Assembly: GCA_963842525.1 (NCBI GenBank)
Contig: CAWJGT010000009.1
Coordinates: 608,001-672,000, forward strand
Source: an uncultured Holophagales bacterium
GTDB lineage: Bacteria > Acidobacteriota > Thermoanaerobaculia > Multivoradales > UBA5704
Reading direction: 5' to 3'
Length of the DNA stretch: 64,000 nt
Shown: in pieces, positions 1,848 to 5,529 of the stretch
How positions within the stretch are numbered: the stretch's first letter is position 1
Layout: every line of letters begins with the position of its first letter
The notes under the pieces: generated by a model
What the model was told of the DNA's origin: nothing
Seen by the model: only the letters and a program-made list of their open reading frames with translations
Database searches by the model: none
Position numbers and translations under genes: made by a program

Positions 1848-2402
1848 TCAGGACCCCTGAATCCTGCCGACGAAGGGCAAATTCCCATACCTCCCCTCGT
1901 GCTTCAGGCCATAGCCGACGAGCACTCCCTGCTGCGGCACCGTGAACGCGCTGTAGTCGAGCTCGAAGTCGGTCTTCCGCGCGTCCGGGATGTCGATCAG
2001 GGCGGCGAACCGGACCTCGCGGGCGCCATGGTCCCGGAGCTGCTGTTCGAGATACGGCTCGGTGACCCCCGATGTTACGACGTCCTTGAGGACGAGCACG
2101 CTCTGGCCCGCCACGTCGACGGCGAGCGGGTACTCGATCTCCACGACGCCCGACTCCTGGTCCTCCCCGGAGCTGACGTGGATGAACTCGAAGCGGACCG
2201 GCCGCTCGATGGCGCGCACCAGGTCGGCGAGGAAGATCACCGAGCCGCCCAGCAGCGCCACCAGGACCGGGTCCTCGTCCGTCAGCTCCTGGCCGATGCG
2301 GCGGCCGAGCTCGCCGATGTGGGCGCGCACGGTCTCGGCGTCGAACACGGGCTCGATGTTGGAGATGTTGGAGAGCTGCACCTGCGATGTGGGCGGCGTC
2401 AT
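1848..2402 (-). CDS. hpt: Hypoxanthine phosphoribosyltransferase homolog with a degenerate active site
   Basis: Co-linear with Hpt over its full length (IFLADLVRAI, VGYGL, NLPFVG); canonical tilS-hpt-ftsH position; catalytic motifs altered. Confidence 0.85.
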   Translation of the reverse strand: MTPPTSQVQLSNISNIEPVFDAETVRAHIGELGRRIGQELTDEDPVLVALLGGSVIFLADLVRAIERPVRFEFIHVSSGEDQESGVVEIEYPLAVDVAGQSVLVLKDVVTSGVTEPYLEQQLRDHGAREVRFAALIDIPDARKTDFELDYSAFTVPQQGVLVGYGLKHEGRYGNLPFVGRIQGS

Positions 2403-2440: not shown

Positions 2441-3883
2441 TTAGAGGTCTTCCATGTCTTCGAGGGTGGCGACCCAGGCGGTCGCCTGCCCGGCGATGCG
2501 GAAGCGCTGATCGATCGTGACGCCCGGCACCCAGGCGATCCGCTCCCCGATGCAGAGCAGGGGGAGCCGGTCTCTCTGGTGCCGCGGCATGCGCCGGTCG
2601 ATGAGCACCTCCTTGAGCCTCCGGCTGCCGCCCGCGCCGAGAGGGTGCAGGCGGTCGCCGGGACGACGGTTGCGCACCGTCACGCGGTCTCCGGGTGCCA
2701 GGGGCAGCGCGAGGCCGGCACGGTGGGAAGCTCCCTGGAACATCCAGGGCTCGACAGGGCGGCGGTGCAGCCCGACCCGGACGCCCAGCTCCGGGATCGG
2801 CAGCTCGCCCGGAGCTTCCAAAGTATATGAGAAAACGGGTGCGTCCTCCGGAGCGGCCCGCCGCAGCGTCAGCCGGTCCCCCGCGGACTCCCACCGCCAG
2901 CCGCCGCCGCAGTCGCACCCGAGGCCATCTGCGGACCCCGCAAGCTGGCGCAGCAGCTCGGCGCGCGCCGTGCTCGCGGCCGGGTACGGGACCCCGGCGC
3001 GGCGGTGGAGGACGGCCAGGGCGTGGGGGAGGAGCGCGGCCGGGAGCCGCTCCAGGGCTTCGCGGCCGGCGGCAACCCCGTCGGTGAGGACCTCGATCCG
3101 GAGAAGCCCGGAGAGCCGGCGGTCGAGCGCGGCCATGGCGTTGTGTGCCCTGCCGGCCAGTTTGGCGAGCTCGAAGGACAGCAAGGACTCCAAGGACACC
3201 AAGGACGCTCCTCTTTCTGGTCGTTGTTGTCCTTGGAGTCCTTGCTGTCCTTGTTGTCCTCCAATGAGCGCCGGCAGCAGCCGATGGCGGACACGGTTCC
3301 GCGGCACGGCCAGGTCGGAATTGGTCGGGTCCTCGACCGCTGCGAGCCCCGCGGCCTCGACCGCCGCGCGCAGCATGGACCGCGGCAGGTCGAGGAAGGG
3401 GCGGACCACTGCGTCCTGGACGGGACGGATCCCGGCGAGCCCTTCGAGGCCGCTGCCGAAGAGCAGGCGCAGCAGGACGGTCTCGGCCTGGTCGTCGCGG
3501 TGGTGAGCGGTCGCCACCCAGCGGGCGTTGCGCGCGCGGCGCACCTCGTCGAGGAATGCATAACGGACCCGGCGGGCCGCCGCCTCGGGACTCTCGCCGG
3601 GACGGCGGAGAGCCCGGACTTCGCGCCTCTCGCGGACGAGAGGTGCTCCGAGACGATCGGCGATCCGGGCTGCTTCCTCGGCCCGGCCGGCCGACCCTGT
3701 ATCCAGGCCGTGGTCGAGGTGGGCCGCCGCGACCGGGACGCCCCGGAGCCGGGCGAGCCGCGAGGCCGCGAGGAGCAGCGCGGTCGAGTCCGGGCCTCCC
3801 GAGAAGGCGACGACGAGCCCCTCGCCAGGAGCGAGCGGGGCCTGCTCCCGGAAAAAAAGCTCCAGATGATGGAGAAGGTCCAT
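2441..3883 (-). CDS. tilS: tRNA(Ile)-lysidine synthetase
   Basis: PP-loop SGGPDS, AHHRDDQAET, RNRVRH, TilS C-terminal domain; ATG at 3883 just downstream of the tRNA. Confidence 0.95.
   Translation of the reverse strand: MDLLHHLELFFREQAPLAPGEGLVVAFSGGPDSTALLLAASRLARLRGVPVAAAHLDHGLDTGSAGRAEEAARIADRLGAPLVRERREVRALRRPGESPEAAARRVRYAFLDEVRRARNARWVATAHHRDDQAETVLLRLLFGSGLEGLAGIRPVQDAVVRPFLDLPRSMLRAAVEAAGLAAVEDPTNSDLAVPRNRVRHRLLPALIGGQQGQQGLQGQQRPERGASLVSLESLLSFELAKLAGRAHNAMAALDRRLSGLLRIEVLTDGVAAGREALERLPAALLPHALAVLHRRAGVPYPAASTARAELLRQLAGSADGLGCDCGGGWRWESAGDRLTLRRAAPEDAPVFSYTLEAPGELPIPELGVRVGLHRRPVEPWMFQGASHRAGLALPLAPGDRVTVRNRRPGDRLHPLGAGGSRRLKEVLIDRRMPRHQRDRLPLLCIGERIAWVPGVTIDQRFRIAGQATAWVATLEDMEDL
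3174..3260. repeat. Intragenic palindrome built from 9-bp AAGGACnnn units inside tilS
   Basis: AAGGACAGCAAGGACTCCAAGGACA (3174-3198) is the exact reverse complement of 3228-3252. Confidence 0.9.
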
Positions 3884-3897
3884 GGAATCTGCGAGAA

Positions 3898-3974
3898 TGG
3901 TGGCGGTGACGGGACTCGAACCCATGACCTAGCGGTTATGAGCCGCTCGCTCTAACCAACTGAGCTACACCGCC
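3898..3974 (-). tRNA. tRNA-Met(CAT), probably elongator
   Basis: GGCGGTGTAGCTCAGTTGGTTAGAGCG...CT-CAT-AA...GGTTCGAGTCCCGTCACCGCCACCA cloverleaf. Confidence 0.93.
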
Positions 3975-4130
3975 AGGATGTACGAGAGAAGAGATCGCCG
4001 GGAGAAGAAAAGGAGGTCGGCGGCCTTCCGTCGCGGGCGGATTATACCCGATCGCGCCGGAATGAGAAGCCTCGCCGCCGGAGCAACCCCCCTCGCCCGA
4101 GGGCGCTCCGGCCGACGCAGAAGGTCAGAT

Positions 4131-4460
4131 CTACCGCAGAACTTCCTGGCAGCTCCGGAACTGGCCGAAGAACTCCTGCATGGACGTCGAGAGTGCGGGT
4201 TCGTTCAGCCGGTAGATGACGTTCTGCCCCTGCCGCTGGTCGAGCACCAGGTCCGCTTCCTTGAGGACCGACAGATGCCGCGAAATCGTGGGTTGAGAGA
4301 GGTTGAAGTTGCCGACGATCTCGCCGACCGTGCGCTGGTGGCCCTCCAGCAGACGGAGGATCTCCTGGCGGGTGCCATCCGACAGCGCCTTGAAAACCTT
4401 CGTCATGTGCCGCTCGTCCCGGCGGAACGAATGCATGATACCGCGGTCGATGTTGGCCAT
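4131..4460 (-). CDS. ArsR/SmtB family transcriptional regulator
   Basis: FKALSDGTRQEIL...SQPTISRHLSVLKEADLV...RQGQNVIYRL winged helix; start may be internal (MTKVF). Confidence 0.9.
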   Translation of the reverse strand: MANIDRGIMHSFRRDERHMTKVFKALSDGTRQEILRLLEGHQRTVGEIVGNFNLSQPTISRHLSVLKEADLVLDQRQGQNVIYRLNEPALSTSMQEFFGQFRSCQEVLR

Positions 4461-4735: not shown

Positions 4736-5344
4736 TCAACCGCGGGCGCTCTGGTACCGTTGCTCGACCGCCTGCCAGTTGATGGTGTTCCACCAGGCGG
4801 TGAGGTAGTCGGGGCGGCGGTTCTGGTACTTCAGATAGTAGGCGTGCTCCCAGACGTCGACGCCGAGGATCGGGGTCTTGCCCTCCATCAGCGGGCTGTC
4901 CTGGTTGGGCTTGGCGACGACCTCCAGATGGCCGCCGCTGACCACCAGCCAGCCCCAGCCGGAGCCGAACTGGTTCGTCGCCGCGTTGGTGAGCTTCTCC
5001 TTGAACGCATCGAAGCCGCCGAGGTCGCTGTCGAGCGCCTGGGCCAACGCGCCGGACGGGGTGCCGCCTCCGTTCGCGCCCATGACCTCCCAGAAGAGGG
5101 TGTGGTTGGCATGGCCGCCGCCGTGGTTCTTGACGGCGGTCCGGATCGCCTCGGGCACCCGGTCGATGCCGCGCAGCAACTCTTCCACGCCGAGACTCTG
5201 CAGCTCGGGCGCCTTGCCGAGCGCCTCGTTGAGCTTGTTGACGTAGGTGGCGTGGTGCTTGTCGTGGTGGATCTCCATCGTCTTGGCGTCGATATGGGGC
5301 TCCAGCGCGTCAAAGGAATAAGGCAGAGGGGGCAACTCGTGCAT
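4736..5344 (-). CDS. sodA: Fe/Mn superoxide dismutase
   Basis: [44 protein letters not shown]; AGGAGGAG RBS. Confidence 0.95.
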
Positions 5345-5529
5345 CGGACTCTCCTCCTTGCAGCACCTGGTTGAAGGGGTGTTTGGACGGCGGGCCGCGG
5401 GCTGACTCTCTCGCTCTCCCGCCCGCTCCGCATTCTGGCACGAACCGCCCGGAAACACGAAAGCCCCCGGGGTCGGGGGCGGAGAGCACGGGGCGCTATC
5501 TTGAAGGGGCGTGAAGGGGAGAGGCAGGA

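Follow-up and report, generated by a model that had tools for sequence, protein, structure and literature searches.

Organization of the hptX locus

An open reading frame of 184 codons lies at positions 1848–2402 (−) of the window, the whole 64,000-nt stretch of uncultured Holophagales DNA that was analyzed. We named it hptX. Its 184-aa product (P0001) is an HPRT-fold protein with a degenerate active site, as judged from PF00156, TIGR01203, and an AF2 model. A ribosome-binding site, GGGAGG (GGAGG-type), was read directly at 2414–2419 (−), 11 nt before the hptX ATG. The upstream gene on the same strand is tilS, encoding tRNA-Ile lysidine synthetase (2441–3883 (−); PF01171, 142.8 bits; TilS_C, 75.2 bits), and hptX follows it after 38 nt. 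The tilS open frame reaches 3925, where it overlaps a tRNA gene. Its likely start is the ATG at 3883, which fits the fused relative P0123, a protein that begins at the residue equivalent to M15. Downstream of hptX, after 126 nt and again on the same strand, is ftsH (3–1721 (−)). Its first 573 codons are present before it runs off the window, and it is 60–86% identical to the ftsH found 3′ of hptX in related loci. The intact Hpt-like frame that had been predicted between tilS and ftsH was thus confirmed together with its flanks.

A non-initiator tRNA gene with the anticodon CAU (3898–3974 (−)) precedes the likely tilS start by 14 nt. A sigma-70-like promoter match, TTCTCA-16-TATAAT (4041–4068 (−); a consensus match only), lies 5′ of the tRNA–tilS–hptX unit. 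In 72 of 108 related loci, other Acidobacteriota classes included, tilS is likewise closely preceded by a CAU tRNA on the same strand. Both non-initiator CAU tRNAs of the genome matched "tRNA-Ile" of annotated E. coli genomes at ~83% by BLAST, a match that does not separate Met from Ile2. Should the CAU tRNA be tRNA-Ile2, TilS would be co-transcribed with its own substrate.

Upstream of this unit are an ArsR-like small HTH protein (4131–4460 (−)) and an Fe/Mn superoxide dismutase-like open reading frame (4736–5458 (−)), both judged by eye from their translations. Inside tilS, a hairpin at 3171–3257 has a near-perfect 25-bp stem (−58.4 kcal/mol, z = −7.7). It is an in-frame insertion in the interdomain linker of TilS and is absent from all 32 aligned orthologues, and blastn-short gave 34 matches to its arms at other sites in the genome. 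A small palindromic repeat element seems to have inserted into the coding linker. In the soil RNA library X1, a 256-nt contig had 4 differences from hptX positions 2002–2257; this library consists of contigs only and may contain DNA carry-over, so the match does not imply expression.

hptX encodes an HPRT-fold protein with a degenerate active site

The Pfam domain PF00156 matched the hptX protein with 52.5 bits, against a gathering cut-off of 26.3. The AF2 model, made from a 25-row alignment, had a pLDDT of 83.5 and a pTM of 0.79, and its best Foldseek matches in the PDB were all HPRTs (1r3u, 3h83, and 6d9q; TM ~0.83). The domain score and the fold match place hptX in the Type I phosphoribosyltransferase fold. 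For TIGR01203, the HGPRTase equivalog family, the score was 113.5 bits, under the curated cut-off of 150, which leaves hptX outside the equivalog. The HGPRTase motif ED..D[ST]G, the PPi/Mg contacts, and the purine contacts were all lacking. JGI annotation nevertheless names hptX-type proteins "hypoxanthine phosphoribosyltransferase".

Substitutions in the window protein were read from phmmer alignments to the solved HPRTs 4pfq, 1r3u, 2geb, and 4rht. Residues are numbered by what we take to be the human HPRT positions (E133, D134, D137, K165, D193, and R199), and the roles attached to them (PPi loop, catalytic Asp, purine Lys, and Mg Asp) are those we presume from HPRT structures. In hptX, the K/R of loop I is replaced by G (LLGG in place of L-[KR]-G), and loop II reads SSGEDQE where SSYG..K is expected, with no Ser-Tyr. 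KDVVTSG stands in place of ED..D[ST]G, changing E133 to K and the catalytic D137 to T. The Lys that contacts purine O6 is I (IDIP vs LDKP), the stacking Phe is V/L, the Mg-binding Asp is K (GYGLK vs GYGLD), and the PPi Arg is G (YGNLP vs YRNLP). The alignments agreed with every active-site replacement listed in the original prediction. D134, the [ST]-G-x-T 5′-phosphate loop, GYG, and NLP are retained.

The losses had been described as sitting in an otherwise preserved fold. This held for the fold itself, as the model and its structural matches indicated, and was overstated for the sequence, which is generally diverged: hptX shares only 22–33% identity with the canonical paralogue of the same genomes. 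The lost residues are found amid this divergence, yet at positions that are invariant in 29/29 canonical copies of the class. These copies, from genomes that also carry hptX, all keep [ST]SY, ED..D[ST]G, the Lys, GYGLD, and YR.LP.

hptX is linked to tilS across Thermoanaerobaculia

The clade motif KDV[VI]x[TS]GV[IT]E was searched in 185,579 species genomes. It gave 236 matching stretches, and 219 of them were confirmed as relatives. The best 80 of the 219 relatives were labelled Acidobacteriota, Thermoanaerobaculia, Holophagales, or Multivoradales, with a single exception labelled "uncultured bacterium". The degenerate tilS-linked Hpt is a clade of the class Thermoanaerobaculia (Acidobacteriota).

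In 117 of 123 distinct loci, tilS was upstream and ftsH downstream of hptX on the same strand (the synteny counts include the unpublished loci L042 and L058). The other six had ftsH downstream and no tilS match; two of these had almost no upstream flank. Of 88 in-class loci, 60 had a 4-nt overlap between the hptX start and the tilS stop, 14 had spacers of 0–60 nt, and 14 had other arrangements. This is the B. subtilis-type gene order tilS–hpt–ftsH, and the overlap suggests that expression of the two genes would be coupled.

Fusions were sought by searches limited to longer proteins. Ten clusters of TilS fused to degenerate Hpt were found, with four junctions: P0130–P0135, P0137, P0138/P0139, and P0123. 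The six clusters P0130–P0135 came from contigs of up to 145 kb and bear the NCBI name TilS, and several of the fusion clusters are single metagenomic contigs. The Hpt parts were 34–56% identical between fusion groups, whereas they were 54–100% identical to unfused relatives. Since the fusion groups are closer to unfused relatives than to each other, fusions arose more than once. One of them, at locus L149, was verified in DNA as a stop-free, in-frame tilS–hptX, and it is the only fusion among 94 species-level loci. TilS fused to canonical Hpt was also present (P0125–P0127).

P0140 (15 member sequences) joins TilS to a differently degenerate Hpt of another lineage, with C-D, S, R, and G at key sites. 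Open frames of 582–719 aa around hptX were rejected as fusions; they are GC-rich read-through, and tilS was in another frame in 9/9 loci checked. P0124 (549 aa) was not counted, as it has an apparent frame error in the C-terminal part of TilS.

The complex of TilS (alignment A2) with hptX (alignment A1) was predicted with a score of 0.00, which counts neither for nor against binding. An AF2 model of the fused P0131 (alignment A3, 14 rows) had a pLDDT of 79.1 and a pTM of 0.46, giving neither a confident domain arrangement nor an interface.

The originally predicted link of hptX to TilS was borne out by the constant synteny, the overlap, and the recurrent fusions. The 4-nt overlap and the four-junction fusions make a partnership with TilS the best reading. 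Natural fusions of this kind argue for a physical TilS–hptX complex, and we consider it reasonably probable that hptX acts physically with TilS. Against this, operon genes commonly overlap, only 1 of the 94 species-level loci is fused, and several fusion clusters stand on one metagenomic contig each.

Active-site loss is clade-wide

Residues were counted in 110 in-class hptX sequences, the unpublished loci L042 and L058 included. E133 was K in 110/110. R199 was absent from 110/110, being replaced by G in 102, and D193 was kept in none (K in 71 and E in 36). The catalytic D137 was kept in 1/110, as was the loop II Tyr. K165, the purine Lys, was kept in 11/110 and was otherwise L, R, M, I, V, or H. 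The stacking Phe was kept in 0/110, with 10 different residues in its place. The loop I Lys was kept in 38/110; its loss was mainly in the window's own order. These counts extend the predicted loss of catalytic residues from one protein to the whole clade, where E133K, the loss of R199, and the near-complete loss of the catalytic Asp are conserved. D134 was kept in 109/110, [ST]138 in 110/110, and G139 in 109/110.

Residues that are conserved in hptX and not in canonical copies were K106, V108, V113, E115, Y117, L118, and Q121, together with R63, G159, and G173. Most of them gather on the strand-loop-helix that follows the former PRPP motif.

The tilS-linked Hpt copies of other Acidobacteriota classes (11 copies, L064–L074) kept D137 and K165 in 11/11 and R199 and D193 in 10/11. 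Loop II Ser-Tyr was already missing from all 11. In two of them (L065 and L073), VGTVVDT replaces VEDI.DT and the remaining catalytic residues are kept, an independent degeneration. Many of the other-class genomes carrying a tilS-linked Hpt show only one Hpt match.

From these residues, hptX is very probably dead for the HPRT reaction. The surviving D134 and 5′-phosphate loop speak against a fully dead enzyme and leave room for ligand binding or an altered activity. hptX might thus bind PRPP, a nucleotide, or (p)ppGpp as a small phosphorylated ligand and, without involving TilS, either sense it or catalyse an altered reaction. Phosphoribosyltransferase folds have been reused as regulators (PyrR and PurR), and HPRT binds (p)ppGpp; both facts are in keeping with a sensor, as are the near-invariant D134, [ST]138, and G139 and the newly invariant K106 and E115 beside the [ST]-G-x-T loop. 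However, the purine contacts vary freely in the clade, with seven residue types at position 165 (L, R, M, I, K, V, or H) and ten in place of the stacking Phe, and the pyrophosphate contacts are gone (R199 in 0/110; loop I Lys in 38/110). Such free variation where purine and PPi would be contacted makes a conserved pocket less likely. Phosphate would also be expected to be disfavoured by the invariant Glu with which the phosphate-binding helix starts, and a sensor independent of TilS leaves the TilS fusions unexplained. We therefore regard such ligand binding as rather unlikely, and the nucleotide-sensor idea of the original prediction as somewhat disfavoured.

The hptX–ftsH spacer carries an ECF-type promoter motif

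The spacer contains a GGAAT-N18-GTT motif at 1805–1830 (−). This is the sigmaH/sigmaR-type ECF promoter consensus as given in the source consulted (PMC10012870). Of 109 in-class loci, 50 had a strict match at the aligned position and 13 a loose one, most of them from the window's order, and 2 of 5 examined genomes without hptX still carried the motif. Just 3′ of it, an alignment of 21 spacers, the window's and those of 20 relatives, revealed a short conserved inverted repeat of the AAGGGAC..GTCCCTT type (1778–1796 (−)). An Rfam search of the spacers gave no match besides tRNAs. ftsH may be a stress-sigma target here, and judging from the motif it probably has its own stress promoter.

One model, in line with the original prediction, is that hptX, together with TilS, would act mainly as a transcription activator of ftsH, in the manner reported for B. 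subtilis TilS–HprT. In the review consulted, a B. subtilis TilS–HprT complex is described as activating ftsH (Lin, Hu and Shaw 2014, J Biochem 155:5, via PMC8152036). This precedent, the constant position of ftsH as the next gene, and a spacer with a conserved promoter-like motif and inverted repeat are consistent with such a role. But the spacer motif fits an ECF sigma consensus, so a stress promoter of its own probably serves ftsH; of 5 checked genomes without hptX, 2 still have this motif, which is confined to the window's order; hptX has no DNA-binding motif; and tilS–ftsH adjacency outlasts the loss of hptX. We judge a mainly ftsH-activating complex to be quite unlikely. That ftsH transcription is the output of hptX in any form is also doubtful, if somewhat less so. 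hptX is tied to ftsH by adjacency alone, and the FtsH link is somewhat disfavoured.

A canonical hpt gene is present elsewhere in the genome

A second hpt, which the original prediction had led us to look for, lies on a different contig (C3:1594116–1594610) of the host genome, whose 9.95 Mb are spread over 34 contigs. This copy scored 204 bits with TIGR01203 and keeps all motifs. hptX is on contig C9, and the two genes are never adjacent.

Among 151 sampled genomes of the class, hptX was found in 110 (clade profile A1, E ≤ 1e-44). This line is not sharp: on A1, in-class members score as low as 155–165 bits, and up to 162 bits is seen for copies linked to tilS in other classes. A canonical hpt above the TIGR01203 cut-off was found in 139 of the 151. 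Both copies were present in 99 genomes, hptX only in 11, canonical hpt only in 40, and neither in 1 (82% complete). These tallies include the unpublished genomes G004, G104, and G135, all with both copies; without them, the counts are 107 and 136 of 148.

The eleven genomes with hptX only are 93–98% complete. Seven (G024, G032, G056, G084, G092, G128, and G132) are all the sampled genomes of one genus, none of them with an hpt above the TIGR01203 cut-off; the other four are G003, G008, G013, and G018. Judging from gene content, these eleven may lack hypoxanthine/guanine salvage by the HPRT route, and the JGI naming would over-predict purine salvage in them. They also indicate that hptX is independent of the canonical enzyme.

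hptX was not found with profile A1 in 41 of the 151 genomes, and 40 of these keep canonical hpt. It was missing from all 23 genomes of family f5, from f4 and f7, where one genome each was sampled, from one of the three relatives sampled within the window's own family, and from scattered members of f3, f9, f10, f11, f12, f14, and f15. In 5/5 genomes without hptX that were checked, tilS directly abuts ftsH and the sole hpt lies elsewhere, indicating that TilS works without hptX. Loss of hptX in 40 of 151 genomes suggested that the gene is useful but dispensable. The absences, among them all 23 genomes of one family and one genome of the window's own family, count against a partnership with TilS.

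Many pseudoenzymes regulate an active paralogue, and hptX could in the same way regulate canonical Hpt through mixed oligomers. HPRTs are dimers or tetramers, and 99 of 110 hptX carriers also have canonical hpt. Yet 11 carriers have no canonical hpt, including 7/7 genomes of one genus, and 40 genomes keep hpt without hptX. In addition, the two genes are never neighbours (contigs C9 and C3 in the window's genome), and the linkage and fusions of hptX are to tilS. Regulation of Hpt by mixed oligomers is thus improbable.

hptX is under purifying selection

The frame was intact in 122 of 123 distinct hptX loci, whose proteins were 39–84% identical to the window protein. L034 has a stop codon immediately before the hptX start, and L137 is a contig-end fragment only. 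By NG86 estimates, the median dN/dS of hptX was 0.40 (172 close pairs, dS < 0.5), below 1 as anticipated but a relative measure only, since dS is compressed in this GC-rich clade and inflates dN/dS (even ftsH has 0.26). Because of the compressed dS, the neighbouring genes were used as controls over the same 380 locus pairs. The median dN was 0.278 for hptX, 0.272 for tilS, and 0.101 for ftsH. On dN/dS alone, hptX was below tilS in only 51 of 380 pairs. Compared with the canonical paralogue in 29 genomes (406 pairs), hptX was 1.25–1.31 times as divergent and was more divergent in 360 pairs, and the two sets of distances were correlated (r = 0.81).

A maximum-likelihood tree of 70 rows was built, with pse_G096 and out_L065 dropped for too few filled columns. 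The hptX clade was monophyletic (100/100 support, stem 0.79), and the canonical clade had 97/93. The tilS-linked copies of other classes fell between the two clades, and the same internal subgroups were repeated in the in-class hptX and canonical clades. As the tree is unrooted, the order of events given below is one that we infer.

Frequent loss and neutral evolution had been named beforehand as signs against a retained function. The first was seen in part, with hptX absent from 41 of 151 genomes; neutral evolution was not seen. The intact frames, a dN close to that of tilS, and the modest excess over the paralogue distance indicated purifying selection and upheld the view that the gene is not in random decay. 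hptX is almost certainly functional and under selection. The loss of catalytic residues and outright gene loss in 40 of 151 genomes could suggest a decaying gene without function, a reading that is contradicted, and that we dismiss as extremely improbable, given frames intact across the class at 39–84% identity, a dN equal to that of tilS, a divergence only ~1.3 times that of the active paralogue, and new invariant residues that have arisen in hptX. As an enzyme homologue without catalytic residues that is under purifying selection, hptX is, from its sequence, a pseudoenzyme.

Proposed role of hptX

The explanation that we favour overall, with some confidence, is that hptX is a pseudoenzyme acting as a non-catalytic partner of TilS. 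Its source would be the gene for hypoxanthine phosphoribosyltransferase, which in many bacteria stands between tilS and ftsH. A separate canonical hpt would have taken on purine salvage in the ancestor of Thermoanaerobaculia. The tilS-linked copy would then have lost the residues binding Mg-PRPP, pyrophosphate, and purine, and would have been kept since under purifying selection. hptX presumably makes no IMP or GMP any more. It may instead be a stoichiometric, non-catalytic partner made with TilS by translational coupling from one mRNA, and in some lineages the two would be one polypeptide. What is still conserved of the former active site, namely the strand-loop-helix L-K-D-V-V-x-[ST]-G-V-[TI]-E-x-Y-L-x-x-Q plus R63 and G173, is the candidate for a new functional surface. 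The partnership could aid tRNA recognition or binding by TilS, tune TilS activity, or activate ftsH as reported for B. subtilis TilS–HprT.

A broader and more tentative possibility is that the tilS–hpt pair is an old two-protein TilS holoenzyme, in which an HPRT-fold subunit would have a structural role in lysidine formation and HPRT catalysis would be unneeded. The structural role could be tRNA-Ile2 recognition or ligand gating of TilS. If such a holoenzyme existed, Thermoanaerobaculia would be a natural separation-of-function experiment, and the TilS-linked second role of hprT in Bacillus would be accounted for.

A non-catalytic partner of TilS bears on an old puzzle. An HPRT gene stands beside tilS in many bacteria, and the two proteins form a complex in Bacillus, where salvage and the second role are inseparable. 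In Thermoanaerobaculia, salvage would be in another gene, and the tilS-linked copy, very probably without the chemistry, has been kept through the history of the class. It is kept even where no active Hpt remains, and it has repeatedly been fused to TilS. The class thus offers a clean system for asking what the HPRT fold does for a tRNA-modifying enzyme. hptX also adds a bacterial pseudoenzyme family. In the literature on HPRT pseudoenzymes, tilS–hpt–ftsH operons, Thermoanaerobaculia salvage, and TilS fusions (supplements excluded), no description of the hptX family was found.

Comparison with known systems

PyrR and PurR resemble hptX in using a phosphoribosyltransferase fold for a non-catalytic or regulatory role. 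They differ in keeping a working PRPP site and in binding RNA or DNA by known surfaces, and neither feature was seen for hptX. Another parallel is PRTFDC1, the vertebrate HPRT paralogue (PDB 2jbh). In PRTFDC1, the catalytic Asp is replaced and activity is very low; hptX likewise is an HPRT paralogue with this Asp replaced. Unlike hptX, PRTFDC1 belongs to eukaryotes, still has most of the remaining active-site residues, and is not linked to TilS.

Canonical Hpt/HprT (TIGR01203, EC 2.4.2.8) shares with hptX the fold (TM ~0.83), the length, the PRT core, GYG, and NLP. In contrast to Hpt/HprT, hptX scores 113.5 against the 150-bit cut-off and is without the loop I Lys, loop II Ser-Tyr, E133, the catalytic Asp, the purine Lys, the stacking Phe, the Mg-binding Asp, and the PPi Arg. 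The canonical TilS–Hpt fusions P0125–P0127, presumably the UniProt "Bifunctional protein TilS/HprT", resemble the hptX fusions in being one chain with Hpt C-terminal. Their Hpt keeps SYG, EDIIDSG, GYGLD, and FRNLP, whereas P0123, P0130–P0135, and P0137–P0139 carry the degenerate type.

In Firmicutes, as far as the sources consulted describe them, Hpt/HprT has the same position between tilS and ftsH as hptX. A study of S. mutans places hpt and tilS within the ftsH operon (PMC8112672), and in B. subtilis, tilS and hprT overlap by 1 nt (PMC8152036). The hptX locus thus resembles that of B. subtilis, as described there, in having three genes in the same order with an overlap (1 nt vs 4 nt in 60/88). 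The difference lies in the protein. B. subtilis HprT is described as an active moonlighting enzyme, whereas in hptX the enzyme function appears to be gone and to reside in a separate gene.
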